DNA of 64,000 bases from Tricharina praecox (GCF_024521635.1 NW_026250445.1:62001-126000); one strand, 5' to 3'. Shown: positions 16,018 through 41,034, numbered from the stretch's first letter. The notes: a model not told the origin generated them from the letters alone. Program-made: numbers and translations.

Positions 16018-19000
16018 TCAGGACTTTGCTCCTAACGGCCCCTGGGAAGAGTAGATATGAGGCAGTAATGCTACTACAGCTTGAGCGGTCCGTAGAGTGT
16101 CAGGATGGCCCCTTCCGAGGAGTTTCTCCCTGCCTTTGAGGGCCCGCTGGTACCACTCTAGGGCTTTGTCGTACTCTCCTTGAAGACCGAAAACATGGGC
16201 CATGTTGGCAACGATAGTGAGAGTGTCAGGGTGGTCCTTTCCCTGCGATTTCTCACCGCCATCGAGGGCTCTCTGAAAAAACTCCAGGGCTTTGTCGTAC
16301 TGGCCTTGGGAACTGAACATGGCGGCGATGTTGTTGACGGTGGTGAGAGTGTCAGGATGGACCTCTCCTAGCGTTTTCTCCCTGCCAACAAGGGCCCGCT
16401 GGTTCCACGCTAGGGCTTTGTCGTACTGGCCTTGGGAACTGAACACCCCGGCCATGCTGTTGACGGTGGTGAGAGTGATAGGGTGTTCCTTTCCCAGCAA
16501 TTTCTCATAGCCATCGAGGGCCCGCTGGTACCACTCCAGGGCTTTGTCGTACTCGCATTGCGAAGTGAAAATGTGGGCGATGTTGTGGATGGTGGTGAGA
16601 GTGGCACGGTGGTCCTTTCCCAGCGATTTCTCATAGCCATCGAGGGTCCGCTGGTACCACTCCAGGGCTTTGTCGTACTCGCATTGCGAAGTGAAAATGT
16701 GGGCGATGTTGTGGACGGTGTTGAGAGTGTTACAGTGGTTCTTTCCTAGTGATTTCTCCCTGCCAACAAGGGCCCGCTGGCACCACTCCAGGGCTTTGTC
16801 GTACTCGTATTGGAAACGGAACACCTGGGCCATGTTGTCGACAGTGGTGAGAGTGTCAGGGTGGTCATTTCCTAGCGATTTCTCCCTGCCGTCGAGGGCC
16901 CGCTGGTACCACTCCAGGGATTTGTCGTACTCGCATTGCGAAGTGAAAATGTGGGCCATGTTGTTGACGATGGTGAAAGTGTCAGGGTGGTCCTTTCCCA
17001 GCGACTTCTCATAGCCATCAAGGGCCCGCTGGTACCACACCAGAGCTTTGTCGTATTCCCCTTGGGAACCGAACACGCTAGCTATGTCGTTGACGGTGGT
17101 GAGAGTGTTACGGTGGTTCTTTCCTTGTGATTTCTCTCTGCCAACAAGGGCCCGCTGGTTCCACTCTAGGGCTTTTTCGTACTGGCCTTGGAAACTGAAC
17201 ACCCCGGCGATGCTGTTGACGGTGGTGAGAGTGATAGGGTGTTCCTTTCCCAGCGATTTCTCATAGCCATCGAGGGCCCGCTGGTACCACTCCTGGGCTT
17301 TGTCGTACTCGCATTGCGAAGTGAAAATGTGGGCGATGTTGTGGACGGTGGTGAGAGTGGCAGGGTGGTCTTTTCCCAGCAATTTCTCATAGCCATCGTG
17401 GGCTCGCTGATTCCACTCCAGGGCTTTGTCGTACTGGCCTTGGGAACTGAACACGTCGGCTATGTTGTTGACGATGTTGAGAGTGTCAGGGTGGTCCTTT
17501 CCTAGCGACTTCTCCCTGCCAACAAGGGCCCGCTGGCGCCACTCCAGGGCTTTCTCGTACTGGCCTTGGGATCTGAACACCCCGGCCATGTTGTCGACAG
17601 TGGTGAGAGTGTCAGGGTGGTCGTTTCCCAGCGATTTCTCCCTGCCGTCGAGGGCCCGCTGGTACCACTCCAGGGCTTTGTCGTACTCGCTTTGGTAACT
17701 GAACACGTCGGCCATGTAGTTGACGGTGCTGAGAGTGTCAGGATGATCCTTTCCTAGTAGTTCTTCCTGACCTGCTAAGGACCACTCGAACAGATTCGCT
17801 ACTGGCTTGTCAAGTCTGTGACTGGCATAGATTCGTCCCAATTGTGCGGCGGAGTAAAACACCAATGCTGCGTTTACCATGATTGGAGTCGTTGGCTCTG
17901 TACGAATTATGCTCCGTCGGACCGTATCCATGTGCGACCATACTCGCCTTTCGAAGTCCCAATCCTGCCGCGATTTTGCGTTGTAGTCTTTGGATATTCG
18001 ACCACAAAGAATAAGGGCCTCTTGGGCCTTCGTCTGCTGTGACCGAGCGTCCAGCCGTTCTCGAGCCCATAAGTGCACAACCGGATGTATCCAAAAGGCA
18101 TCCCTTGACCCATTCCGTCTTGCCAGGGAGATACGGAAAAGCTCCGCGCGTGACTCCAGAAGCCACTCTTCTCCTATACGCAGTCAGATGGATGAAATCA
18201 TGATCTAGCAGGTGCGCCCGCACCCTCTCCTGCCCAATCGAACAGTAGTTGACACCCCTCAAATAGCTTATCCGGAATATCTGCATGTGCTAGAAACCCA
18301 CATAGCAATAAAAGTTCCTGGGCTGGGTGTGAAAGCGAGGCAAATGAAATCTCCCACGTCGTAAAGATGGTTCGGTTCGAGTTCCGTTGATCTGATAACC
18401 ACTCGGGACCCCCTTTTTGTGCAAACGTTCGAAATGCTCCGTCCAACAGAGCCAAGTATCGCTGAAGCGGAATCTGCGTGTACGAGATGTATGAACCCGC
18501 CTGAGTTAAGGCAAGTGGCAGGAATCCCAGCTTTACAGCTATCTGGTTCGCGATATCAAGCTCTATGCGCCAAGTTAATAGTCGATACGCTGAGCGGACT
18601 ACCTACTCTGGTGCTTGCCTTCCGCCTTCACATCGTCTATGTTCGCGCTCTTCATGAACAGCTCCATGCCCGAATATTTGTCGATGTCATCGACGGCTAC
18701 TGGTATTCCCAACATTTTCAGATCGCTCTTCCGTGACGTAATAATCACATTGCCGGTATCGCAAGTTGGTAGGACGAGGTGAATGTCAACCGCATCGACG
18801 TCGTCGTAATTATCCAAAATGAGTAGCCAATTTTCATTTCCTTTTGTGGCTAGCCACTTCTTCAGTGCCCCAGTCACCTGTCCTGCCGCCGCTTCGGAAG
18901 AAACCTCGCCATCCAGACCCAGAAAGCCTCTCAGTCCCAACATCGAGGCGATATGCTCATATGAGGACCCCCGCTCCGCATACGCGGCGACAATATGCTC

Positions 19001-20096
19001 CACAATTCCTCGTGCACTTTGGGATAATGACGCCCCGTTGGTGACATCAATCCAGAATACCGTCGTGTATGAATCCGAGTATCGGAACGAATATTCCAGT
19101 GCAATGGAAGACTTGCCGATACCGCCGAGACCATATAGCACCACACTTCCGCGGGCCATCTGCCGGGCATCCGCAGATGCGCCTTCATTGAGGAAAGCGT
19201 GTATAGTGTCGATGATGTCGGCCCTACCGCAGAACATACGGTCGCGGTGGAACGGAAGGATTGGGTTCACTGCGAAAGAAGGTGTGGCGGATTCTTTCCG
19301 TCCTTTGCCTAACGTGTCAACCCCATAACTTGGCCCGTTAGGACCTCGTGAAGAGTACGTACTGTGTGATAGATCCCTTGGTTGCGGCCCGACAGGGAGT
19401 ATCCTTTGTAGACTTTCGTTGTATTCTTTCAACTGTCCGATCAAATCTTCAACCCTATTTCTACCAAGCAAAGACCATTGTAGTTTCTTCATAGTTGGCA
19501 GCGTCTTCTGCAAGCGTTCCGCGCTGCGTTTCAAATCCTTCACTTCATCCTCAAGCCCTGGCATTATCCGACCCAAACTTAAAAGAGTTGGATTCGTAAG
19601 AAGTTTGATACTGTCCTGGTCCAGTCCGGTCTGGGTTCCAGGGCCGTCCGTCGGGCGATGTGACGGAATGGGGCTCGTCCGAGATGGTAGACGGAAGAGC
19701 TGCCGTACACTATCGCGTTTCCTTTGGCGGTCGTACTGCAAGCCGTACTTCGAACTGTATTCGAGGAGCTCAAGAAATACTGCCGAAATTCGCGCTAGGG
19801 TAGATACGGCGAATCGGAAGTCGCAGTGGCTAGGATCGATCTTGCGATTACTCTCAAGCACCCAGACGTCGGCCCACTTCTCTAGCCAGCGCTTTTCGGT
19901 ATCGATTCGATGGCTAAGATCCGCATATTCCCGGCCGAACGATTGTATGGTTGACAGAAGGTTGTAGCCTTCCACGCTCGCTTTGACAAGCTGGCCGGCA
20001 AGCCCTACGACGGCAATACCTAAACCTGAGCGATCGACGACGATTAGCTGTTCACTCAGGACTGTCCGGCGTCGGCACTGTACCTGCAAATTCCAT
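16018..20096 (-). CDS. Fungal NLR-like STAND protein: HeLo/HeLo-like N-terminus, NB-ARC, 13+ TPRs (~1304 aa); exons 20096-20084, 20025-18619, 18562-18224, 18173-16018
   Basis: Spliced N-terminus MEFAGLGIAVVGLAGQLVKASVEGY..GREYADLSHRIDTEKRWLEKWADVW resembles HET-S/HeLo. Walker A GLGGIGKS, Walker B LLILDNYD, 'VIITSR', 'LGFLPLALTQAGSYI' and 'WIHPVVHLWAR' are present, followed by kinesin-light-chain-type 42-aa TPRs. Exon lengths sum to 3915 nt. Confidence 0.9.
16090..17790 (-). repeat. Intragenic 126-bp tandem repeat array (TPR units), 13 full units plus a partial
   Basis: Repeated 'YDKALEWYQRALxGxEKxLGKDHPxTLTTV' with 126-nt period. Confidence 0.95.
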
Positions 20097-23000
20097 GGTT
20101 CGAGTGATCTTGTTCTCAAGTTTCGTATGGAGTCAGCGTTGGTGTGATAGTTCGTGGCGGTGTTCCCGTTGCGATGCGGGGTAACAGAGCCCCATGTTTT
20201 CATTTTTCCTTGCTGCAATTAGGATTCAGCTTAAGCTGCAAGTAAGACGCCTGGTACCCATGTCTATCAAAAGCATTAAAAAAAACTCACTCTGGTTGGT
20301 GTTGCGGAAATTCGGGTGCCAGTGCGGCTGAACCAAAAATCGCCACAAGCCAGATAATAGGCAGCACACAAACCTAAAAAATCCCGCTTCCGCCGAGACA
20401 GCGTTTACTTTCCATATGGCGCCTGTTTCCTTGAGGGGGGTAGCGCAATAGGCGAACAACCTCCCCCTCGGTCAGGATGAACGTCTGACCATTTCCATGC
20501 ACTTCGAGCGCTTGGGTGATTTTGACACAACCCTCGCGACCACAGAGCTGTGATACAGCGGTCGTCACCGGCTGCTGCAGGCGGAGGCGCTTGGCTTTGG
20601 TACTTCTCGCGTTGCGAAGAAGCAGTCAGCTGTCCGATAGAGTACCGAGCAGCGTCTGAGCGACATTGGTAGCAGGCCGGACCACCTATATCCACGATGA
20701 CTCGACTATTATGGAGGAAGCGTAGCTTCGGGACGCGTACAGCCTGAGGCTAATCGGTCGAGGAGTTTCATCATGTAGAGAGAGATCAGCGATGGACTGT
20801 TGAATTCAGAAGAAGAAGCTTGATGCTGAAGGTCAAGGTGATCCTCCGGTCTCGAGCTCCTTGCACATTGTCTGGTGCCAAGGCGCTAGCTACGTCGTGT
20901 CCCGTGACATTCAGGTGACTTTCCCATGACAACTACAATATCCCAGCCACTCGTGTCCGTGTTTATTACATCCACATCTTTGATAGCTTGTGTGAAGAGT
21001 TTTGGGTAATGTGTTCGGTTAATGGATGATGGGAAGGGAAGGGAAGGAGATGAAAGATGGGAGCTGTGGGTTGGTGGGTGTGAGTTGGTGGAGAAATATG
21101 AGCTCCGAGGTGAAATTGAATGTTGGCTGCTGGAACGATTGAAGCCTTTCAGTCTTGCGAGAGTGGTATACCTCCTCCCGCGCTAGCGTGAAGAAATTAT
21201 CACCAAAAGCCACCTTTGCCGCGATCGTCGGATTACTGCCAACCATAGCGCATCACTCGTTATGTTCTCAGCGCACTTCAGCAAGGGGGAATTGGAGTAC
21301 CTAAGTCGACCACCGGTGGAAGTCTTTGCTACTAGTAGATTAAAGCAAGCTTCTCGGCCTGTACATAGAGATTTTATGTATCCCCGGCGGATGTTGAAGA
21401 CAATAAGGACCCACCAAGTTTCCCTCCTGTGCACGCAATCCCTGGCACCTAGACGGCTTAACCTCGCTCGTATAGATTGACTCTATAATTGCTAAGGCTC
21501 AGAGCACTCTGTACGTATCATGCATTCCTATTCACGTTTAACGCAAACATGCTAAGTTTCATCCCCTCCGAAAGCTCCCCAGCTTCCCCGTCCGAGCCTA
21601 GCCCATCGTCTTCATCCCCCGCCTACGCCGTCTTCATCCATTCAATGCCATCGTTAACGTCGCCGTCAATACTCCCTAAGTCGTGAAGATTAGCGAGAGC
21701 AGGACTCCCCTCTACAATGCCGTCCTCGTGCGGGATGCAGTCGCTTGCCCGCGGGATCACCAACGGTCGTAAATCGATCTCGACCAGTACCATATCCACT
21801 GTAGCGAGAGGGTATTTCTTAGGCGAGTTGTGGGTAAAAGAAACTAATAAGGACGTCTCGTAAACAAATGTCATTTGACCTTTCCTCCTTCTCGATGGTA
21901 GAGCCGCAATCTTTCGAATAGGTAGTCGCCATATCATCTCCAACTAGGTTTATGGTGTACGTCTCCAATAGGACATCCCCATCGTTGATCTAGGCTCCCT
22001 TTCCTTACTTCCTTTTCCTCCCGAGGCGAGAGGGGCAACCCTCCCTCTCCCTCATATACACTCACTAAACCCCCGGCCCCAGCAGTCGTCTGGCAGCATA
22101 GACGTATATTGATATTTCCCCTTTCGGGGCCGATGCTGCCGGGGGCTGGAGGGTTCCGGATGGTACCGGGCATACACCTACCTCTCCCGCACTGTCGCGC
22201 CTGGGCCGCCCCGTGGGCAGACCTCAGGCTCGGACACAGTGGGGGAGTTAGCGCGGGCCCTGCGCTTTGCGGCGAGCGGAGGTGATGACGACTCGTGGTC
22301 GTGTCCGGGTGGTGGTTTCATGTGAGGATATCGAATCCAGTCGCGGTACTTCACTCTCTTCTCCTTTGTGAACCGTGGCTGCATAGCCGTTATCTGGTAT
22401 GTAGTAATAAATTGTCCCGAGGTGTGGGCGACAGGGATCCTTCAACGTTCAAGATTTCTTGGCGGACTGGGATTGGATCCCAGACGCGAATGACGTCAGT
22501 TCACATGATATCACTCGCTTACTCGCAAACTCCGTCAATTGCGAATATGGATTACTTCGATAAAGATGAAGTCTATGGGTCTAGTGGTAATTACAAAGGA
22601 CATGCCGTTCAATGAACATGACTTCGTAACACTTTAAACTGGACACATCTGCGTATGTAGAAGGCGGATTGCCGAAGTCGGAGGGCGATAGTCAGGAGAG
22701 ATCTTCCGTGGCACCTAAGGTTTTCCTGAAAACGTGGCAGCCCGCTTTTAGCGCCCGAGATCATGTAGGACTCGGCTCGGAGCAATCCATGCAACCTTGC
22801 CACGCTCCTTCGCTACGCCGTAACTAGCCATGTGGGCACAGCTTCTGGAGATAGTCGCTTAGCTGACGCTATTGAACTTCATCCGCCGCAGGGTCGACGC
22901 GGTAGATGTTCTGAAAGCTGCGAGCAGAACGTGTATCCCCTGGAGCACAGGGGAAATGGTCGTTTCGGCAGTCGGAGGTTCGAGCTACATGCACAGTATA

Positions 23001-23517
23001 TCGGTGGCACCTGCAGCTGGGCATATGATACATAGAAATGCTCGCCGTCGTTCGAATCCAACACGCCGCAAGCACACCGGCAGACGAGCGTTGATTCAAG
23101 CCCGTTTCTTCTATGTGACGGAAGTGACAAGTTCAAGTACACTAGCGCTTTGCAAGTTTGGCAGTCACTCGACCTTTTTGGTCGAGAAAGTGATGTGCGC
23201 CTCGTTCTGATACCAAGAGTTGCATGAAACCCCTCTCTCCTCTCTCATCTCCCTTCCTCTCCTCTCCTCCCCTCTCCCTCTCCTCCCCTCTCCCTCTCCT
23301 CTCCTCTCCCTCTCCTCTACACAACACCATTCACCAACACACCGATCGCTGACACCACCTCAACCATCCTCTCTTCCCGTCTCTTTCTTTTCCTCCTTTT
23401 ACGCCACCATTCACCAACAACCTCCTTCGCACACTACACCTCAAACACCCACCCTTCCAATCCCAATCCACTACACACTACCACCACCCGTACTACACAC
23501 CCTACCAGCACATCACA

Positions 23518-24117
23518 ATGCGATTCACGATCACTCGCGTCTCAGGAGTAGGCTTCTTTGACCAGATGATGGCGGACTTCCCGTCGCCCAACAGGCGCAC
23601 CTGCAGATGCCTCCCCCTTCAGTGCAGCCACGTCGTACCGGAGATGGCCTCATCCTTTGCACGTACCCTCAATGCGCCTCCGCGTATTCCCTGCCGCACC
23701 CGTCGCAGAAACGGTCAAGCTACCAATACTCCCGCAGTCGAAAACGATGCGGTCACCTCCGAGAGTGCACTCAGTATGTCGAACGACGACGGAAAGCTTA
23801 AGGATGGCAAGGTCGAGGTCAATCTCGAGATCACCGACAAGATCACCGACAAGATCACCGACAAGATCACCGACAAGATCACCGACAAGATCACCGACAA
23901 GATCACCGACAAGACCAACGGCAAGACCAACGGCAAGACCAACGGCAAGACCAACGAGAAGCTCAAAGACTCTATCGAGACAGCCGAGGCCGCCGTTGAG
24001 GAGGCGAAGCTCGAGGTCGACGTCGCGGAGGGTACGAGCAACGACCCCCTCCCCTCCCCCCTCTCTCTTGTGTGGTCGAACATACTAACTATTGTGACAA
24101 CAGTCAACACGATGTAA
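23518..24117 (+). CDS. Orphan protein with (ITDK)7(TNGK)3 tetrapeptide repeats; probable intron 24032-24103
   Basis: ATG after a CT-rich leader and coding-like codon usage. Canonical intron signals GTACGA..TACTAAC..CAG, 72 nt and in frame. Confidence 0.55.
   Translation: MRFTITRVSGVGFFDQMMADFPSPNRRTCRCLPLQCSHVVPEMASSFARTLNAPPRIPCRTRRRNGQATNTPAVENDAVTSESALSMSNDDGKLKDGKVEVNLEITDKITDKITDKITDKITDKITDKITDKTNGKTNGKTNGKTNEKLKDSIETAEAAVEEAKLEVDVAEGTSNDPLPSPLSLVWSNILTIVTTVNTM
23829..23956 (+). repeat. 12-bp coding minisatellite (ATCACCGACAAG)7 then (ACCAACGGCAAG)3
   Basis: Directly visible. Confidence 0.95.
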
Positions 24118-27100
24118 CCAACATGTTACTACGACCAACACATCGACCTTTTACTATGCATTGGGCGATTGTTTTGTTTTGCTACGGCATCTCTAGAAGT
24201 GGGAGTTGGTGTTGTGTTCTTGGGGATCTTAATGAGCGCTGGGGGTGGCAATACTAGGCCATGTAATGGGAGTGTTTTGTGTTTTGTTTCTTGTCAATGC
24301 TAGTACTAGTATTCGCCAAAATAATTTGGATTAATGAGGTTCGTTGCGTTCTTTGTGAGATCGAGAGAAGTACCGGGTGCGGAAAGGAGGGTGCGGTGAT
24401 CCATGTAGAGATCGTGGGTTCTGGTGAAAGATGCGGTGGAAGAAGGCTGTCTTTCTATGAAGCTCTCGTGATATCTAGGGGATCCTCTTAACTATCGCTC
24501 ACTACCTACATTTGTAGAATGTAGATACCCACTTCCTCCTTCATGCTAACTCCGTTTCTCGCTACCGGTCGCTTGCGCTCCTTTATCAGACTGCATTGGA
24601 TAATCACTTCCCCTGAGCCATAGCCGCGATGCTCCCGAGACGTACAATAGGTATGCGGGGAAAGGTGTGCGAGGCAGAGGGAGCAGAACGGAGGGGGAGA
24701 CACAGTGGCCGACTCAGTTGCTCTGACATTGGACTCATCTCGATCAAACCAGGTGGTGCTTCTCTGATACCTACTGTAGACACTATAACCAGTGCTGCCG
24801 CTGCCGCCAAATACCACAGAGCAGTTCACTCTTGCAAGGATAATCAACACCCACCCTGTTCGGCGCGGAACTTATATCTAGATATTACCAAGTATAGTAA
24901 GTACTTTACTTAGTACACTACATATTGCCCCGGTCCCCCTACCGTCAGGGCTGACGTTCCCCACAGAACCCTAACCCCCTCGAACGTCAGTCGACCATCC
25001 TGTCTTCATTCTCGGCGTTCCGGGAATGCAGGATTAGCTGCGGGAAGTGTGTGCTGCGGACTGGATGCCATCTCAGTCTATGGCGTGAGATCCTCTCTAA
25101 CTATAGGTAGGTGACCGGCGACTCGAGCTGATGTCCATATAGCTCGCCTCCACCGACCGTCATACTACGGTAACGGTGTCGCCGCCGTACATGTCTGTTA
25201 AGATCACCGCTGTGGATTACCACCGAAAGGTGTGGCCCATGAGAGGTTCTTCTTGCTCATTAATTTCGATCTCGGCTCGCTACCTACTCTAGCATGCAAG
25301 CCGAGGAGTATCCCTTCTCCTGACCCATCTGATGCAAGGAGCTTGCCATGTGTGGGATTCTTCGCTGGCAAGTCTCAGGGACGAGAGCTGTACCAGCTGG
25401 ACGTCGCCGCGCATCCATTAGCTCTCATAATCTCTACACTCCAGCACATCCTTTCCGGACAGATCCGAACCGTTATCACCACAGTCCATAGTAGGTAGGT
25501 ACAAAGCAAAACGATCAACCGCTCTTCATTCTTGAGCGGCAATTCTTCAACCAAGCCAACCGGCGCTCGTGAAGTCCATGTGATATCACAGTCCAGTCCA
25601 CGAATGCAGCACCTTCATTGCATAAACCCAGAAGAAATGTAACTGCTGGAAGCTACCTACCTATGTACCTTGGTGTAAGCTCAAGAGAAGCGAAGAAAGG
25701 AGAACGAACGCTACGGCGTGTGTGAACAGAGAACTACGGAATGGATATCAGGCTTTTTGCTCTTCTGAAAACACTAGTACGGTCTCGCCGGAAACCTAGC
25801 CAGTAGCGATTTCGACCACTACCGCAACTCGAGCCATTGTGTCGCTGACCTGTATGTCCTTGTTACTTCGCGTGAAGCGCCAGGTTTCGCTTGAAGTTGA
25901 AGATCACTTGACCCACTGTTCCACCTCGTCCAGACCCTCGATGCGGCCGACAACAATCCCAATGCAGTAATTCCCGTTAAAAATTAAGGTTGATGACGGT
26001 GTTGAAGGCATAAGCTGGGACACTAAGTGGTATCCCTTCGTGAGATGGGCAAGGAGGAGATGACGTAGGTGGCACCAGCTAGGATATGTTTATTCCGCGT
26101 AAATAGATACCTTAAATCCTGCACAGTGGACAGATGGCAAGTTGTGCTTCGTCATCGACCTCGGATTGATGGAGATATCGAGCGTCTTTCGGGGTTGCTT
26201 ATGATAAACGAGGCGATGGCCCATCAGGGTTGAGACGCCGGTGACATTGAGCTCGAGCACGGCGAGGTAGAGACACACACGGGGTAGCGCGGAGGTGTCA
26301 TCAGACGAGACGATTGTACGACTGATTGGAGATGCTACCGTTATTAACGGCGGTCGCGGAGGAAGTCCAGTCACGTCGGAGTTTCGGCGAAGGTGGTGAT
26401 GGAAGACAAAGTCAGAAGCGTCTAATCGCACTTTCATCGATGGGAGGCATCAGACGACCGATGCCAAAGGAGTAGCCTTCCGGGTGCTTGCAAATCTCGG
26501 AGGTGAGGGTGGGGAATCCCTTCCGAGGCACAGCACTTTGAGATGGCGATGACAACGACGGCGTCAATTCAGGCTTTAAAGACGGCATCCACCCCGCCGT
26601 TTCGCGCTTGACGGCTTGAGCATCAGCATCAGCCCTTAGTGTTGGCGTAGGGATTGGTGGTCTCCACGATGGGGGCGGAATGCTTCTTTGTAGATCCGGT
26701 TTCGGCGGTAGTGGTCGGAATGCTTCGTCGTAGATCCGATTTCGGCGGTAGTCGTGCGGCTATATCGGTGCCATGCTGCTTCCGTTCCTCCACCGACACG
26801 GGCATCGTAGGGGTGTGGCTCGTCAAAAGATTTTGGGGCCGAGGCTGGAAAGGATGACTTGGTCCATCATACGATGGTCATGAGAACCAAGCAGTTCATG
26901 CAGGCTAGGTAGGCCAGTTCACGGCCAGGCTCCACAGGTATGAGCGGGGTAGGTAGTTACTGCGGCGCAGCATGGTCCGCGCGGAAAGGGGCGCGATGCC
27001 ACGTGATGGTGGCTTGCCAGTCTGTACTTTGTTCGGCACCATGGCGCGGAAGGACTTGGATTTGGTCTGCGTCCTCGAGCTTGTTGGATAAACTTTGCAA

Positions 27101-27521
27101 ATGACTTCTGAGTCTATCTGACAAGCTCCGAACCGGGTCTGTCATGGCCGCCACATGACAAGGACTCATCACGTGATATCCTTTCGTCACGCCACTTAGG
27201 CTGCGCCACAGTACCGGTACCACGGATGGAGAGGCGGGGCGCATGGACCCTGTCATTTTTCGTCGCGCGCGGTGACCAGGCGAAATTCCTGTGTGTCCTC
27301 TTGTTTCCGTGCATCTTGGGGATCCAATCAACTGCGCCACTTGTCAGTGCAGGACGATGCGTCTGGCTTTTGGCTGCGCGCTCATCCACACCAACTGACG
27401 GCGCACCAGCACGCAGAAAACGCGTTGCGGGGCTGAGCATCTCGTCCTTCTTCATGAAAGTCCTCGCCGTGTGCCCAAGGAGTGTTCACTTCCATCTTTA
27501 TCTACAAGAATTGCCACTTCG

Positions 27522-30500
27522 ATGTCAAAACGCAAAAATTCAGATCACTGGCAAGCGCCAACGCCCCCACCAGCGCAGAGGCTGGCAGCGCGCGAGCCGC
27601 CCATGCCAACGCCAATACAACCGCTACCCCAGTCACAGTGTCGATTTCGAACACTCCGCATTTCTTCTATCCCACTGCATGTCACGAAGGACGATTTTAG
27701 GCCGTATCTGAAGGAACTCCTCGGATACGATGACTTCGTATTCTCATTGGTCCCTACGAAATTTTATGCAGTAGCAACTGTTACTCTCACTAAGGGGGAG
27801 CCCGCATGCCCGGATCTTGCGGGTTGCACCCCGGGCAAAAAAACCTACATCGCCTACGGGGAGTCGGGAGTCATTCTAGCCGTCGACTGCGACTTTCTTG
27901 GTATGACACCATTATACAGTGCATCGGAGCCGACAGTTGAGTAATGCCCACCCTCCCCGCGCGTTTTTATGCGGCGGCGCTGATGGACCTTCTAGCCTCG
28001 TCGCCGTCACGGGTCTCGCAGGCCACGCATATGGATCTTGGAAGTCGCGCAACCGGCCCCATGTGTGGCTGAGAGACTTTCTACCACACGATCTGGATGC
28101 ACACGACTGCAGAGTGAGGGTTCTCACGTTTGGCTACAACTCGGCTCTCAAAGACGATAGGTCTACACCTTCTATCCAAGGCTTTGCGAGATTGCTCCTC
28201 GACAGTCTGAACAGTCAACGTCAAGGCGAGAAGGTACTATGCGTAAATGTCTTTGCGGCGAAAGTTGGTTAACAGATCATTGCAGGAGCGACACCGTCCA
28301 ATAATCTTCATTGGCCATAGCCTCGGTGGTTTGATCATCAAACAGGTAGGCGAAGTTGCACTTTTTGGCCATGAGTGAATGTTGACCCTTCTCACCTACC
28401 TAGGCACTCGCCGATGCATCCCACGAAAGCGAGAAATCCGAAAACGACCAAGCCATCCTAGACTCGTGCACTGCACTCTTTCTCTTCGGAGTACCGCACC
28501 GAGGGCTCAACATCAAAAATTTCAGAACCTTGGTGAAGGACCAGAAGAATGAACACTTCATCGGTGACCTGAGAGTCGGCTCGGACTTCTTGAGACTGTC
28601 GCATCAGCGTTTTTCCCAAGTGGTTGAGCTCAACAGTTGCCAAGTCATTTCATTCTTCGAATGTAGAGACACTCAGGCTGTGGTCATTGACGACCGGACC
28701 GGATGCTGGAAAAGAAGTGGGGAGATGATACGGCTTGTCACACAGGAATCAGCAACCTTTGCTCTGCGCACCGAGGCCACCCACATGCAAATAGGGATCG
28801 ATGCCGACCACTCGAACATTGTCAAATTCGATGACAACTCCGACCATCACTACAGCACGGTAAGGGACAGGCTGTTGTATTGTGTCGAAAAGGCCCCAAG
28901 GATCATCGAATCCCGTTTGGAAAGTGTCACAATCGGGGCAAATTTTGATGATTCCCCGCCAGGGACCGAACAGCCATCCTCGAGCCGCAAGTCTTTTGAC
29001 GAATTCCGGATACCGACAGAGCTACCGTTTTCCAGAAATCAGAACTTTTGTGGCCGGGAAGACCTGATCGAACGAATTCACGAAAAATTACATCCGACAG
29101 AAGCTGCCGGTGCAGATGCGGTCCCCTGTAGTTCTACTGAGAGAAACTTGGTAACCTTATACGGCTTGGGGGGTATCGGGAAGACGCAGGTGGCTTTAGA
29201 GTACGCATATCGCTATGAAGCGTTCTACAGCGCAATCCTGTGGGTTGATGCCAGAGACCCAACCGTTTTGGAAACAAGCGGTGTTCGGGTTGCCCAACAG
29301 CTCGTACGTCACTACGTTAGCGAATTTCCTTCGAATCCTGACTATATACGCATTGCCAACGACCTCGGAATTCCCGGCGGTATCGATATTTCAGGCACCG
29401 TCCAGCGGCAGATATTGAACTCCGGGAATGTCTGGCCAACCATCAAGCGATGGCTTCAAAAGAAGGGAAATGATAAATGGCTGTTATTAGTCGACAATCA
29501 TGATGACTTAGAGACGGTGAACATCGTCGACTACCTTCCAACCTCAGACTGGGCCAGGATAATCGTAACCTCCCGTCGTTCAGAGATCCAATCGCTTGGC
29601 CATTCAATTTCAGTTGCAGAGATGGAGAAAGACGTTGGACTTGCAATGCTGATGAAAGCGATGCGAGTTGATGTTGTTGAAGCCTTATCGGTGGAGGGTA
29701 TGTGACCACAGGCGTATATTTTAGTCTTCGCTAACTGAGCATGACAGAAATCAAGGATGCGGAGGAAGTTGTCGAAAAGTTGGGAGGACTCCCTTTGGCA
29801 ATCAGTCAAGCTGCATCTTATATATTGATGACAGAGATCGACTTCAAAACATATCTGCTAAAGCTTAAAACCAACTTCAAACGTATCGCGAGCAAGAAAA
29901 CCGGCCTGTGGATGTATCGAAACGAACCGGTTTTCACTTGCTGGGAAATTTCCTTCCACGCACTGTGTCCTTCTGCGACCCGCCTTTTGCACATGTGTGC
30001 GTTCTTGAGCAACGAAGATATTCCGGATGAATTATTTCGGCGCGGTAGCAGAGGCGTCGAATGGCTGGGAAACGGTAGGCCTATCAAACGAAATCTTCGT
30101 TCACTGATCAGTAGACTGACGTTCGTAAAGACAAAGATGCATTCGACAACGCAATTGAGGATCTCTTAGCCTTCTCCCTCGTAAAACGGAGAGCCACTTC
30201 ATTTGCAAAAAGTGATAGTTTCTGGATACACCCGCTCGTTCATCAATGGGCCCGTGATCGTGTCGATGACTCTACGAAACAGAGAACTAGCGCGAGTGAA
30301 GCAATATTCTTGATCACAGCAGCTGTTATCACCGATCCTACAAAGCGAGACACGGAATATTGGGGCTTTGAACGGCGAATATCTAACCACATTGAACTTT
30401 GCGCCCAAAACATTGAGAAATACTACCCCAGTCACGACTCCATATACCCCGAAAAGATCTCACAAGCACTTTATACGTTGAGTCGGGTGAATTACTATCG

Positions 30501-31992
30501 ATGTAAGGTTGAAAAATCGATACATCTGGTTCGTCGGGCCATTGTGGGCTTAAATGGCTTGGAGGCACTGGCAGCAATACACCTCTTGGGGGTTAACTTA
30601 TCGTTCGATTCTCAATACTCCGAAGCGCTCGAGTGGTACCAGCGGGCCCTGGAGGGTACAGAGAAGGCCCTCGGCAAAGATCACCCTTCCACTCTCACCA
30701 CCGTCCTCGGCATGGCAGGCGTATTTGAGCGCCGCGGAGAGTACGACAAAGCGCTCGAGTGGTACCAGCGGGCCCTGGAGGGTACAGAGAAGGCCCTCGG
30801 CAAAGATCACCCTTCCACTCTCACCGCCGTCTACGGCATGGCAGGCGTATTTGAGCGCCGCGGAGAGTACGACAAAGCGCTCGAGTGGTACCAGCGGGAT
30901 CTGGAGGGTATAGAGAAGGCCCTCGGCAAAGATCACCCTTCCACTCTCTCCACCGTCCTCGGCATGGCAGGCGTATTTGAGCGCCGCGGAGAGTACGACA
31001 AAGCGCTCGAGTGGTACCAGCGGGCCCTGGAGGGTACAGAGAAGGTCTTCGGCAAAGATCACCCTTCCACTCTCACCACCGTCCTCGGCATGGCAGGCGT
31101 ATTTGTGCACCGCGGAGAGTACGATAAGGCGCTCGAGTGGTACCAGCGGGCCCTGGAGGGTATAGAGAAGGCCCTCGGCAAAGATCACCCTTCCACTCTC
31201 ACCGCCGTCTACGGCATGGCAGGCGTATTTGAGCGCCGCGGAGAGTACGACAAGGCGCTCGAGTGGTACCAGCGGGCCCTGGAGGGTACAGAGAAGGCCC
31301 TCGGCAAAGATCACCCTTCCACTCTCACCACCGTCCTCGGCATGGCAGGCGTATTTGAGCGCCGCGGAGAGTACGACAAAGCGCTCGAGTGGTACCAGCG
31401 GGCCCTGGAGGGTATAGAGAAGGCCCTCGGCAAAGATCACCCTTGCACTCTCACCGCCGTCTACGGCATGGCAGGCGTATTTGAGCGCCGCGGAGAGTAC
31501 GATAAGGCGCTCGAGTGGTACCAGCGGGCCCTGGAGGGTACAGAGAAGGCCCTCGGCAAAGATCACCCTTCCACTCTCACCACCGTCCACGGCATGGCAG
31601 GCGTATTTGAGCGCCGCGGAGAGTACGACAAGGCGCTCGAGTGGTACCAGCGGGCCCTGGAGGGTACAGAGAAGGTCTTCGGCAAAGATCACCCTTCCAC
31701 TCTCACCACCGTCCTCGGCATGGCAGGCGTATTTGAGCGCCGCGGAGAGTACGACAAAGCGCTCGAGTGGTACCAGCGGGCCCTGGAGGGTACAGAGAAG
31801 GCCCTCGGCAAAGATCACCCTTCCACTCTCACCGCCGTCTACGGCATGGCAGGCGTATTTGAGCGCCGCGGAGAGTACGACAAAGCGCTCGAGTGGTACC
31901 AGCGGGATCTGGAGGGTATAGAGAAGGCCCTCGGCAAAGATCACCCTTCCACTCTTGCGATCGCGAAGTGCATTGCTCTCCTTCCAAGGTAG
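27522..31992 (+). CDS. Fungal NLR-like STAND protein: SesB-like alpha/beta-hydrolase N-terminus, NB-ARC, ~11 TPRs (~1399 aa); exons 27522-27940, 27996-28233, 28286-28345, 28404-29697, 29748-30074, 30131-31992
   Basis: Spliced 'DLVAVTGLAGHAYGSW..WLRDFLP..RVLTFGYNS..RPIIFIGHSLGGLIIKQAL..FGVPHRG..DADHSNIVKF' contains a GxSxG nucleophile elbow and a candidate catalytic His. Walker A GLGGIGKT, Walker B LLLVDNHD, 'IIVTSR', 'LGGLPLAISQAASYI' and 'WIHPLVHQWAR' are present. Five GT-AG introns; exon lengths sum to 4200 nt. Confidence 0.9.
30625..31960 (+). repeat. Near-identical 126-bp tandem repeats (high-internal-conservation TPR array), 10 full units plus a partial
   Basis: Unit gcgctcgagtggtaccagcgggccctggagggtacagagaaggccctcggcaaagatcacccttccactctcacc... 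repeats with only a few variable sites. Confidence 0.97.
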
Positions 31993-37424: not shown

Positions 37425-40400
37425 CTAAATGATATCATCGAACCTGACCTTCATGCACGTAGGGAACGGCCAAAAGCTGCTCCAGTCCTCGGTCATGTAG
37501 ACCTTGAAGCCGCCAGGCTTAGGGATAGTCTTCATGTGTCCCTGGGGGCCAGGGGCTCTTCGGAGACCCTTGAGTTTTCCAAACTCCATCAGCATGGTGG
37601 TCAAGCCGACGATGTTCGCGTGCTTGCCGAGACACTCGTGCGGGCCGTCGCCGTACTGCATGTAGCTGGCATCGGGGCGGTCGAGCTTGACCTGCAGCGG
37701 GTCCGGGAAGACTACCGGGTCGCGCGACGCGGATATGAATGAGACGAACACCAGGTCGTTCTTGACGAGGGGCACTTGGCGCGCTCCGTCACTGAGCGTG
37801 ATCGAGTCGGTGTCTACGCGCCGGTAGAGCCCGAATGTACCCGCGAGACGGCCGCCCTCAAGTGCATACTTCTTGATGATCTCCCATGCCTCGTCGGTAT
37901 CCTCGGCTGCGAGACGCTGGATATCGGCGAGATGGTGGGCGTTCTCGGGCTCCAGGTAGAAGTCCAGGACCTGGGCGAAGATTTGCGCTTGGTTGGGTGC
38001 CGAGGCACCGGCGGTGGGAATAATGTACTTCCAGGTCACGTCGTAGGGAGAGTCGCCGGATTCCAGGAGGCGCTTGATCATGTGGTGGCCGTAGTCGTGA
38101 AGGGCCGACTTGTTACGACCCTGGATGTTGAGCGGGTCGAAGGTGCCCTGCAGCCAGCCCCAGGTCTTCATCGCCTTCACTTGGGTCTCCACGACCGCAC
38201 CGAGTTGGCGCGTGACGGCTTTGGCCACGTGTCGCATGGGGAAGGACTTGGAGGTGTCGATATCGAAGAAGATGGCGATAAACATCGCGCACAGAACCAT
38301 GTACAACTGCTGCTCGGTGTAGATACCCTTGGGGTGGTCCTCAGTCTTGAGCGGAAGGTTGAAGATGGTGGCGGCGAATATCGTCTGCGCCATGTTTCCA
38401 ATGTCGCGTACGGCGTCGACCTGGTAGCACTCGGCTCCTTGGATCTGGTACGCCTTCTTGCGGATGAGCTTCTTGGTGAGGTCCTTGTAGAAGGTGCGGA
38501 TCTGCGCCTTCCAGTCCACACCTTGGAGGTACAACCGGTCACCGACGAACTTCCTCATGGTGGCGTAGTGGCCTCCGTCGCCGGAAAGCATGAATGGGGC
38601 TTCCATGATGTAGTCGAAGCCGGCACCCCAGGTGATCTTGAAGTTGGTGTCGTCGTTGAGGATCTGCTTGACGGCCGTGTAAGATCCAACGGGTACACGA
38701 GGCTTGATGAACTTTGGTCGCTCGAAGTCGAACTGATCCACAGTGCCCAGGGCGGTGTGGATCCTACGGTTTTCAAGGGGTATGGTGAGAGGGTGCATGG
38801 CGTAGATACTGTTGAATTTGAAGTGGTTGGGGAACGCCTTCAGGATCAGCTTGTAGCCGACGCAGCCGTGAACGACATTGGGATTGGAAGAGGCCTCCTC
38901 GATACCCCAGTTGGTGAGTGCAGCGGCGGTGTAGTCGACGGTGTAGAAACGGTCGGCACGCACCAACGTCACAGCATCGGAAAGGATGGCGCGGGACACG
39001 GTGTAGGTGGGACCGATACCGACACCGGGAACCATCGGCGCCTTGTCGTCCTCGGCAACGATGCCGGGGTAGAGCTCGACGAAATCGGGGTGATCGTAGA
39101 GTTGGCGGAGGGAGTTGGCAACAATGGGATCGGGGTTGATTTCCTCGAAGGTCTTGTGCTTCTTCAGGCCGAAGAACTCACGGAACTCGTTCAACGATGC
39201 CACCTTCCATTTACGGGTCTGCTCGATACCGAGAACCTCCACCAGGCGGAGGACGTGGGGGACGTTGCGGGCACCGAATGCGCCAGCAGGGTCCTCAATG
39301 CTCTCGGTCAGAAGACCGACGAGATCTTCGTCCTTGAAATGACCATCAGGCAGCCTCTCGAAGTTCTCGATCGTCCGCTCCGCCGGGTCAGCGGGAATCG
39401 AGTGCTCCCAGATGTGTACACCGATCATGAACTCTTGCAACGTCAACTTCTCGGTGTCCTTTCCGGGGAACAAGTTCTTGTAGAACTTCTGTGTCCATTC
39501 GTCGTCGCGCTTCGAAATGCACGAATGCCATCGGTACACCAGGTTGAACTCGACGGACACCATGTTACCGACACCCGCTGGGGTGCCGTCAGGGTTGTAC
39601 TGCTTGGATGGGTCGAACCGAGGATCCAGGGTCCATGTGGTGTCCACGCGGTTGAGGTTGACGATTGTGCGGAGGTAGTCGTTGAGGATGAAGTTGATGT
39701 AAAGACCACACGTCACCAGTCGGGAGACCTGGAAGAGATCCTCGTCTTGCTGAACCAGAGCCTTGGCCTTCTTGGTCTCCTCGTCGTCTTTGTGCCACCT
39801 GCGGTCATTCTTGAGGTCGAATCGACCACCCTCGTTGATCTCCTTCAATCTGTGATTGTCGTCAGCTCTGGTCCCCCGATTACGACGTAGAGATTGGGGG
39901 GATGACTTACTGTGTCGCGACGTGGTTGTGGAATCGCGCAAACATCAGGAGCATAACCGACACTCCGGGTGGGAACGCCAACAGACGCTTCTCAGCGAAG
40001 ACGTCGTTCTTGAGCCTACCATCCTTGAATGTTCGCACCGTGTTTTGCTGTTCTTGGTCGATACCATACAGAGGGGACAGATCCAGGTACGATGATGTAT
40101 CCGAAATGGTGGGATCCAAGCGGTTCGTACGGAAGAGATCTATTGATATCAGACACCACTCGGCACGGAAAAAGAACAAATAGTGGGTAGCTTACCGTGA
40201 ATGATGATACTTGCGATGTAGAAGAGCATACTGCTAACATTGTTGGTGCTCGGGCGGTAATTCTCTCCGTTCTTTCCTCGGCTGTAGAGGGCATCAAAGA
40301 CAGTGGCGGCATCCGGGGGTGCACCAGGCATCCTCGTCATGGGCTTCACCGAGCGGGCATACGCTGAACCTGCGCGGCCGAGATTGGGGTCCAGGATGTT

Positions 40401-41034
40401 GTTCATGCTTCCGTCCGCTTGACGGTACATGTACTGGGCACCGCAGTACGAGAGAGGAGGATGTTGCAGTGCGTCCCACAGGCCGTCGACTTGGTGTGTG
40501 GTAAGCTTGACCCTCAACTTACTGGTCGTGGGTAGTCGGCAGGTCAATTGGATCATACGTTCCATCTGTTCATGTTAGATGATGACCACAATCGAAACTT
40601 GTATAAACCCACAACGAAAGGGAAAGGAAGATACTCACGATCATCGTCTTGTCGTCAACGGGACCACCCTTCCGTCGGCCATTGGCGAAGATCCACAGAG
40701 TCTCGAGTGACTCCTTCAGGAAGCCTCCTTTCCGCAGTGCGGCAACGTCTGCTCTGATACCCGTCTTGACTTCCTCCTCATCCTCGGTTTCACCCTTCCC
40801 ATTGCCGTAGCGATGGGGTAAGGGCCGATTCGATGCACGGATGAGGGACGCAAACTTGGTAAATGTTGCCTCGACCTCTTTCTGGGAGGGCTTTGCTACT
40901 GGAGGGCTGATTCTGGTCACGGCGGTATTGCGGCTGCCATTGGGGTGACCATTCGACGACGATGCGGTGATCTCGACCGGTTCGTACATGGGAAAGTCTG
41001 GGGCCTTTGACTTTGATCCGTTGTATGATGCCAT
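37425..41034 (-). CDS. ppo: Psi-producing oxygenase / linoleate diol synthase (fatty-acid heme dioxygenase fused to a P450 domain), ~1139 aa; exons 41034-40639, 40565-40196, 40139-39911, 39849-37425
   Basis: 'LQHPPLSY..YRQADGS.NN..P.LG.AG..YARSV', distal His 'IIIHDLFRTN', 'SSYLDLSPLYG', catalytic Tyr and proximal His 'EFNLVYRWH', 'VELYPGIVAE'. C-terminal P450 heme motif 'YGDGPHECLG' and 'NQAQ'. The paralog (ppoA/7,8-LDS/other) cannot be assigned by eye. Confidence 0.93.

Follow-up and report, generated by a model that had tools for sequence, protein, structure and literature searches.

The 64,000-nucleotide stretch of Tricharina praecox DNA analyzed here (GCF_024521635.1 NW_026250445.1:62001-126000; hereafter the window, with positions counted from its first letter) carries two divergently oriented NLR genes, A and B, whose start codons lie 7,426 bp apart. 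Gene A, on the minus strand at 16018..20096, encodes a HeLo/NB-ARC/TPR protein of 1284 aa (ATG at 20096, stop at 16018-16020), and gene B, on the plus strand at 27522..31992, encodes an NLR of 1399 aa that combines an alpha/beta-hydrolase head (SesB-like/DUF676-like) with NB-ARC and TPR regions (ATG at 27522, stop at 31990-31992). A first-pass annotation had described two intact, divergent NB-ARC/TPR genes with starts 7.4 kb apart, and both the open spliced frames and the RNA contigs bear this description out.

The RNA-supported model of gene A runs through exons 20096-20084, 20025-19362, 19301-18619, 18562-18224 and 18173-16018 on the minus strand, with all four joints present in RNA contigs from runs X1 and X2. 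It matches the database protein P0001, named Tricharina praecox, whose public model has a 5' end and one donor site that disagree with the RNA contigs. A GT donor at 18606 was considered for the first of the two introns that A shares with B and was replaced, on the strength of the RNA joints, by a GC donor at 18618 that gives an intron of 56 nt; RNA joints likewise show that a 60-nt intron at 19302-19361 is spliced out. The HeLo domain occupies about residues 1-225 (19366..20096, minus strand) and is split by a 58-nt intron at 20026-20083. It matches Pfam HeLo (PF14479) with 76.9 bits (E 2.5e-21) against a gathering cut-off of 23.2, its best sequence matches among solved structures are the HET-s/HET-S HeLo chains 2wvn, 2wvo and 2wvq (E 0.0016-0.0034), and residue 1 of its HeLo relatives aligns with residue 1 of A at the RNA-supported start. 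An NB-ARC-type NOD follows at 17775..19273 on the minus strand, with a GLGGIGKS P-loop, a GFLPLA motif and introns at 18563-18618 (GC-AG) and 18174-18223. An intron splits this domain, and an exon piece reaches 21.9 bits for NB-ARC (cut-off 23.5) and 32.2 for AAA_16 (cut-off 32.6). The C-terminal TPR array contains 13 full 42-aa units (16110..17745, minus strand; TPR_12 E 4.5e-191 over 14 stretches).

Gene B has six exons on the plus strand (27522-27940, 27996-28233, 28286-28345, 28404-29697, 29748-30074 and 30131-31992), and its model is identical to database protein P0009, also named Tricharina praecox. Joints in RNA contigs cover four of its five introns, the exception being 28346-28403. 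The alpha/beta-hydrolase head spans about residues 136-430 (27927..28974, plus strand) and scores below the Pfam cut-offs for Abhydrolase_6 (E 2e-5, 25.8 bits, cut-off 26.3), DUF676 (E 1.6e-3, 18.4 bits, cut-off 20.3) and PGAP1 (E 0.037, 14.2 bits, cut-off 24.3). Both a GxSxG nucleophile elbow (GHSLGG, with Ser231, on the 60-nt exon 28286-28345) and a conserved His (His375, within DHSNIVKF) are present in this head; we take Ser231 and His375, placed by the known fold, to be residues of a catalytic triad. Among nine aligned hydrolase heads, S231 is conserved in eight and H375, E325 and D386 in all nine. The nearest Atlas clusters (scores 0.93-0.95) carry DUF676 in 25-36% of their members, and a SERAC1 cluster scored 0.88 in the Atlas feature search; a PDB sequence search with the N-terminus of B found no match. 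The NB-ARC-type NOD of B (29019..30376, plus strand) contains a GLGGIGKT P-loop, a GGLPLA motif and introns at 29698-29747 and 30075-30130. As in A, an intron splits the domain, and an exon piece scores 20.0 bits for NB-ARC against a cut-off of 23.5; PF00931 is present in the precomputed lists of many relatives found with the B segment. Ten full, near-identical 42-aa units make up the TPR array of B (30682..31941, plus strand; TPR_12 E 4.8e-171 over 11 stretches).

Spliced transcripts of both genes occur in each of the runs X1 and X2, from which the RNA contigs derive; the contigs match the genes at 99% or more, and we took the runs to be RNA-derived because the contigs carry intron joints. 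Contig depth is about 107-134 for A and about 5-22 for B, although contig depths cannot rank the genes. What the contigs show is transcription of both genes, as distinct from co-variation in level.

Two phase-1 introns interrupt the NODs of A and B at equal positions, and all four joints appear in the RNA contigs. The acceptor of the first lies 11 residues upstream of G(F/G)LPLA, and the second falls four residues past a conserved W (DWAGE-G and EWLGN-D, the hyphen marking the joint), before FWIHP(V/L)VH(L/Q)WAR. The same positions recur at loci L001/L002 and L004 (34% identical to B), and read-through stops at the corresponding places of L003/L005 fit the same two introns, so this arrangement is not specific to the pair. 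NB-ARC STAND NTPases are marked by a P-loop (GxxGxGK[ST]), an hhhhD Walker B motif and GLPLA; in the alignment of A with B these positions read GLGGIGKS/GLGGIGKT, LLILDN/LLLVDN and GFLPLA/GGLPLA. Both arrays are built on one 42-aa TPR unit with the consensus YDKALEWYQRALxGxEKxLGKDHP, repeated 13 times in A and 10 in B. Mean identity between units is 69% aa (82% nt) inside the array of A and 91.5% aa (96% nt) inside that of B, compared to 64% aa (68.5% nt) between A units and B units; the repeats are homogenized inside each gene and not across the two. The two N-termini are unrelated: BLASTP aligns the proteins only from A255/B440 onward. The shared intron positions, the common TPR consensus, the unrelated N-termini and the domain calls of the first-pass annotation all hold, with the Pfam hits for the hydrolase head and NB-ARC below their cut-offs.

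A and B belong to one NB-ARC/TPR subfamily. Their NODs are 38% identical (174/462 aligned positions, BLASTP). A phmmer search with the NB-ARC segment of A gave 10,874 library matches, and among the proteins scored with this segment, most of them taken from the top 150 of those matches, B ranked 8; the nearest relative of A was P0122 at 63% identity, and a partial Wilcoxina mikolae protein is 68% identical to A. Word-based homologue searches failed to recover the partner of either gene, and relatives were ranked by exhaustive search and local re-scoring. The nearest relative of B is P0127, at 68%. With the full NOD of A as query, B was the best full-length match (287 bits versus 274 for the next), and with the NOD of B as query, A ranked 14 among the proteins scored, behind 7 full-length representatives from other organisms and 5 fragments of B relatives. 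In a 90-row tree, A groups with P0122 (SH-aLRT 98) and B with P0127 (SH-aLRT 99), and the two groups lie apart. A 71-row maximum-likelihood tree of full NODs places both genes inside a 30-row clade (SH-aLRT 95), within which a 26-row clade containing B (SH-aLRT 95) leaves A out. The family tree bears 15 HeLo and 8 hydrolase heads, which implies at least four head changes. A-like metagenome contigs, belonging to the P0122 cluster, extend up to 15 kb.

The spacer between the two start codons (20097..27521, 7,425 bp) holds no gene that we recognized. Within it lie a CT-rich tract (23235-23318) and 11.5 tandem copies of a 12-nt unit (23828-23965). Neither its 15 ORFs of at least 110 aa nor its 52 ORFs of 55-109 aa produced a Pfam match above cut-off, and no homologue of the ORF at 23518-24114 was found among proteins of 109-349 aa. 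A search of the spacer for an NLR relic found none, comparison with the remaining window and with 78 loci revealed no repeat in common, and no RIP-like composition was found within it. Fungal NLR clusters have been delimited by a span of at most 40 kb and at most 8 intervening non-NLR genes (PMC12258605); with coding regions 7.4 kb apart and no recognized gene between them, A and B form a cluster under that definition. Low-depth contig pieces lie in the spacer at 20.4-22.5 kb and 25.9-27.2 kb, with loose ends at 21031 and 22190, and 22497-25912 is without contig cover, which is no evidence of silence.

We consider it probable that A and B are two separate, complete NB-ARC/TPR NLR (STAND) receptors that adjoin as a small two-gene cluster. 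Gene structures, domains, transcription, splicing and family relations are direct observations; by analogy to what is established for HET-S/HeLo and STAND proteins, we infer that each protein probably acts alone: its own TPR array would bind a ligand, its NB-ARC module would then oligomerize, and its own N-terminal heads would thereby be brought together. The head of A would act as a membrane-attacking HeLo domain with a predicted cell-death output, and that of B is a predicted serine hydrolase (lipase/esterase-like, of the SesB/SERAC1 type) whose output may be lipid hydrolysis. The common chassis, introns and TPR unit would then reflect membership in an old and expanded Pezizomycete/Orbiliomycete subfamily with repeated exchange of N-terminal heads, and would point neither to a recent local duplication nor to a sensor/helper division of labor.

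The first-pass annotation had proposed that the pair arose by duplication plus effector swap. Common descent with a change of head stands at the level of the family, given the 30-row clade that holds both genes; a recent local duplication does not, with NODs at 38% identity and maximum-likelihood trees that part A from B, although AU tests nevertheless allow the two to be sisters (p=0.19 and p=0.37). An older event, an inverted local duplication after which one copy had its N-terminal head replaced, would have left two now independent receptors whose adjacency is a relic with no joint function; this seems to us unlikely, if the best of the alternatives. It would account for the subfamily, introns and TPR unit that A and B have in common and for the position of B as top full-length match of A; it is permitted by the AU tests and agrees with the view that NLR clusters aid diversification of the repertoire (PMC12258605). 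However, the maximum-likelihood tree groups B with 25 other representatives and leaves A outside, each gene has relatives at 63-68% elsewhere, and only 16 of the 272 Sordariales NLR clusters of that survey were made up of paralogous copies (PMC12258605). The B-like gene of L001/L002 also speaks against it: no HeLo domain and no second NLR gene was found within 10 kb upstream. This comparison covers one species' locus on two contigs, whose B-like gene, possibly a paralogue, is without a hydrolase head. Conservation of the A-B linkage, a further expectation of the earlier annotation, therefore finds no support at the only close relative's locus compared, where the A-like neighbor is absent.

Plant paired NLRs such as RRS1/RPS4, RGA4/RGA5 and Pik-1/Pik-2 are, like A and B, diverged NLR genes arranged head-to-head. 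Such plant pairs are described as splitting sensing from signaling, often with an integrated decoy and often from a short common promoter (PMC12258605). A and B are unlike them in that both are complete, no extra (decoy-type) domain was found in either by Pfam, no truncated partner was found, and the spacer measures 7.4 kb. The plant-like sensor/executor split suggested initially consequently finds no support, as both proteins are three-part and each brings an effector head and a distinct repeat array of its own.

A functional hetero-pair could still be built from two such genes if they were co-regulated from the spacer and their products formed a mixed oligomer, or acted as sensor and helper, so that HeLo pores were coupled to lipid hydrolysis. 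The genes are divergent with none recognized in between, so shared regulation is possible; transcripts of both occur in the same pair of runs; B is the full-length protein that best matches A; and a common NB-ARC subfamily makes mixed oligomers conceivable. However, we regard this reading as very unlikely, since both receptors have their own heads and very different arrays with neither integrated decoy nor truncated partner, the NODs share only 38% identity, the spacer is long for a shared promoter, and the arrangement is missing at L001/L002. The head-to-head pairs of Sordariales argue in the same direction. That 2025 survey reports 272 NLR clusters, 225 of them with two genes and 13 of these head-to-head; 19 of the 26 genes in the head-to-head pairs are three-part, and the authors, in discussing them, judge the pairs not to be plant-like (PMC12258605). 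The most specific version, in which one long bidirectional control region drives both genes and a mixed NB-ARC oligomer unites the pore-forming HeLo head with the lipid hydrolase at one membrane, appears very unlikely too; if it were true, A and B would be to fungi what paired NLRs are to plants, with both members acting as executors.

Two separate receptors in a small cluster, the reading that we prefer, have close parallels among fungal NLRs. Table S6 of the Sordariales survey lists NB-ARC/TPR on both sides in 6 of the 13 head-to-head pairs, and its pair 9, like A and B, sets a HeLo-like/NB-ARC/TPR gene facing a sesB-like/NB-ARC/TPR gene (PMC12258605). The likeness is one of domain labels, with Pezizales here and Sordariales there, and A matches Pfam HeLo itself whereas the label in the table is 'HeLo-like'. 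Swaps of N-termini between NODs up to 99% identical have been described, and both the sesB-like and the HeLo type are frequent among N-terminal heads (PMC4986451). In Table 2 of Dyrka et al., 2014 (PMC4986451), one chassis carries swapped heads, including HeLo-like versus sesB-like, as in A and B; those examples are recent swaps with NODs 80-99% identical, in contrast to the 38% identity seen here, so any head swap between A and B must be old. In NWD2/HET-S-type pairs a HeLo cell-death domain is likewise tied genomically to a STAND receptor, but there a separate small HeLo protein with a prion-forming motif accompanies an NLR with a matching motif (PMC4986451), whereas in gene A the HeLo domain is fused to its own NLR.

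We give almost no credence to the idea that A, B or both are decaying or mis-assembled and that their intactness is an artefact of gene modeling: the public model of A does conflict with RNA at its 5' end and one donor site, and the near-identical repeats of B are hard to assemble, but the spliced frames stay open over 1284 and 1399 codons, RNA contigs with visible introns match both genes in two runs, and the conserved catalytic and P-loop residues are retained. On present evidence A and B are a further example of the mix-and-match build of NLRs, of small NLR clusters and of the rare head-to-head arrangement, all of them already described. If the two proteins truly cooperate, they would be the first functional fungal NLR pair, joining pore formation and lipid hydrolysis in one death signal. 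The practical value of the locus is modest and consists of corrected, RNA-supported models of two Pezizomycete NLRs, which together make a clean candidate pair for work on joint function in the Pyronemataceae.

Gene A (HeLo/NB-ARC/TPR; 16018-20096, minus strand) and gene B (alpha/beta-hydrolase/NB-ARC/TPR; 27522-31992, plus strand) are divergent NLR genes with start codons at 20096 and 27522, 7,426 bp apart, and their observation in the first-pass annotation is confirmed with small corrections to A. Stop-to-stop ORFs were scanned piecewise with Pfam, and spliced models of both genes were then built by script. Because their frames are open and contigs from runs X1 and X2 skip their introns (matches to the window of at least 99%; that these are RNA runs is the guess of the search tool), both genes are intact and transcribed, with contig depths giving no measure for comparing their levels.

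In the ORF pieces of A, HeLo stands at the N-terminus (PF14479, E 2.5e-21, 76.9 bits, cut-off 23.2, bearing out the original call), followed by a P-loop NTPase piece (NB-ARC 21.9 bits, cut-off 23.5; AAA_16 32.2 bits, cut-off 32.6) and a TPR_12/TPR_10 array (E 4.5e-191). RNA joints define minus-strand introns at 18174-18223, 18563-18618, 19302-19361 and 20026-20083, and they altered the model of A by a GC donor, an added 60-nt intron and a 58-nt 5' intron. The 56-nt intron preceding the GLPLA segment (18563-18618) is of GC-AG type in both X1 and X2, with its donor GC at 18618; the GT donor of the public model at 18606, 12 nt downstream and adding four residues (GKHQ), is not the one that these joints show. 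The 60-nt intron is in frame and sits between HeLo and the NB-ARC-type nucleotide-binding region (NOD), and the 58-nt 5' intron is real, being spliced out in the RNA contigs. After the 5' splice, the ATG at 20096 yields MEFAGLGIAVVGL with HeLo starting at residue 1, and HeLo relatives align their own first residue to this start. The public model, P0001 (1343 aa), which lies on the same 162,305-bp contig as P0009, the counterpart of B, begins at an ATG near 20203 and leaves the 58-nt intron unspliced (region 20026-20203, minus strand); splicing puts a stop after that ATG, which then opens only a short upstream ORF. RNA-supported A has 1284 aa and an open reading frame throughout.

On the plus strand, the ORF pieces of B score 20.0 bits for NB-ARC and reach E 4.8e-171 for their TPR array, and the spliced model of 1399 aa is identical letter for letter to P0009. 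X1 and X2 joints skip four of its introns (27941-27995, 28234-28285, 29698-29747 and 30075-30130, plus strand), and a fifth, 28346-28403, is absent from the list of RNA-skipped stretches. The head of B is by prediction an alpha/beta hydrolase, with Ser231 kept in eight of nine aligned hydrolase heads and His375 in all nine. The earlier SesB-like call agrees with GHSLGG, carried on a 60-nt exon, and with the closest Atlas clusters, which are ascomycete and bear DUF676 in 25-36% of members (scores 0.93-0.95, versus 0.88 for a SERAC1 cluster); Pfam matches all fall just under their cut-offs (Abhydrolase_6 E 2e-5, DUF676 1.6e-3, PGAP1 0.037). Dyrka et al. (2014, PMC4986451) use sesB-like for lipase/esterase heads of the alpha/beta-hydrolase class with a relationship to SERAC1, a description that the predicted head fits. 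About 135 residues (27522-27926) precede the hydrolase fold and end in a DCDFLGMTPLY segment, which has a counterpart, DADFFGLTQLY, in the Orbilia relative P0198.

As first described, A and B share two intron positions; by the models and RNA joints each is occupied by a phase-1 intron, the first with its acceptor 11 residues ahead of G(F/G)LPLA and the second four residues past the conserved W, before FWIHPxVHxWAR. Judged by relatives, these common positions are probably features of the family. In metagenome loci L001-L005, where splice sites are predictions rather than RNA-supported, the B-like gene of L001/L002 keeps both positions (a 53-nt phase-1 intron gives ...SAM/S/IKDADEVVEKLGGLPLA), and hydrolase-headed L004, 34% identical to B, has phase-1 candidates, one at the identical acceptor position and the other within one residue of the second site; L003 and L005 have read-through stops at both places. 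The 42-aa TPR unit with the consensus initially quoted is present in 13 full copies in A and 10 in B. Units share 82% nucleotide and 69% amino acid identity within A and 96% and 91.5% within B, compared to 68.5% and 64% between the genes, indicating that each array was homogenised separately, with no sign in these identities of exchange between them. Units of B vary at few positions only, in agreement with the internally conserved repeats of fungal NLRs reported in PMC4986451.

Most probably, A and B each work autonomously as fungal NLRs of canonical build, belong to one old subfamily and lie in a two-gene cluster. Their heads are unrelated, as had been stated (BLASTP aligns the proteins only from A255/B440 on), and the NODs are 38% identical (174/462 aligned positions). 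With the 223-aa NB-ARC segment of A as query, phmmer run exhaustively over 1.84 billion representatives gave 10,874 matches (E <= 0.001), led by metagenome fragments of 63%, 75%, 53% and 68% identity, the 68% relative being a partial Wilcoxina mikolae protein; species named among ten representatives looked up were Rhizina undulata (six), Kalaharituber pfeilii (one) and Orbilia javanica (one). Among 268 fetched proteins re-scored locally, mostly the best 150 of those matches, B ranked 8th for A's segment (157.8 bits) and A 18th for B's, and the closest relative of B was P0127 (68%). With full NODs, B was the top full-length match of A (287 bits versus 274 for Rhizina undulata proteins), and seven full-length proteins (P0179, P0140, P0010, P0130, P0141, P0166 and P0137) outscored A as matches of B.

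The NB-ARC phylogeny did not make the genes sisters. In a quick IQ-TREE analysis (LG+G4, 220 columns) of the best 90 of 131 proteins covering at least 185 positions of the segment, A paired with P0122 (SH-aLRT 98) and B with P0127 (SH-aLRT 99), the two pairs falling apart. Heads typed by phmmer in 23 of these 90 rows (15 HeLo, 8 hydrolase; rows matching neither or both types left uncounted) require at least four head changes. A 71-row full-NOD tree (418 columns) placed B within a 26-row clade (SH-aLRT 95) with A outside, and one 30-row clade (SH-aLRT 95) includes both. An old inverted duplication with head swap, its joint function now absent, is an unlikely reading given this separation in both maximum-likelihood trees, although AU tests did not reject grouping of {A, P0122, B, P0127} (p=0.19) or of {A, B} (p=0.37), so that an old duplication, but not a recent one, is possible.

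Linkage, expected of a conserved pair, was not observed in the one relative covered. A metagenome scan with an alignment of B's exon and the P0127 cluster returned 78 loci, including L001 and L002, which derive from one species (flanks 98.9% identical) and carry a B-like gene (63% identity) preceded by 10 kb of sequence. In these 10 kb, tblastn of A and B detected neither HeLo nor a further NOD. The gene adjoining upstream, a BD-FAE/Abhydrolase_3 esterase, is unrelated and lies on the opposite strand, RNase H and MULE transposon fragments surround the B-like gene, and B's hydrolase head has no match in it. As a single relative, perhaps a paralogue, this is weak evidence against conserved linkage. 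A true functional A-B hetero-pair, for which no specific finding speaks, seems very improbable. The B-like gene itself is 95.3% identical between L001 (9392-12837) and L002 (9392-13340), below the flank value, and its TPR arrays are of unequal length in the two contigs, an apparent case of repeat-number polymorphism.

A two-gene cluster of HeLo-like- and sesB-like-headed NLRs is an arrangement already described in a 2025 Sordariales survey, which defines clusters by at most 40 kb and at most eight intervening genes (PMC12258605). There, 225 of 272 clusters have two genes, and clusters made up of paralogues number only 16. Head-to-head pairs number 13, with all three parts in 19 of 26 genes and NB-ARC/TPR on both sides in six pairs (Table S6), pair 9 joining HeLo-like/NB-ARC/TPR with sesB-like/NB-ARC/TPR; its authors conclude that such pairs are rare and without convergence on the plant type. 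Dyrka et al. (2014, PMC4986451) give sesB-like heads as about 20% and HeLo as 1-4% of annotated N-termini, and describe NLR pairs with 80-99% identical NODs that bear different heads, HeLo-like versus sesB-like included.

The spacer between the genes (20097-27521) gave no Pfam match above cut-off in 15 ORFs of at least 110 aa or 52 ORFs of 55-109 aa, and it showed no NLR relic, repeat shared with the window or RIP-like composition. It holds a CT-rich tract (23235-23318) and a 12-nt tandem repeat, AGATCACCGACA (23828-23965; 11.5 copies, 94% matches), and the ORF containing this repeat (23518-24114) had no homologue among proteins of 109-349 aa. Low-depth RNA-run contigs cover 20362-22496 and 25913-27193, those of X2 having loose ends at 21031 and 22190 that continue into unlike sequence; their source may be weak transcription, carried-over DNA or a dispersed repeat. 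No third NLR was found within the 64-kb window, where the other recognisable genes are DUF3433, F-box-like, Nha1 antiporter and Ras-family genes and a peroxidase-P450 fusion. This last gene (37428-40574, minus strand) joins an animal-haem-peroxidase part to a cytochrome P450 part, an architecture known from fatty-acid (psi-factor/linoleate diol) oxygenases of fungi.
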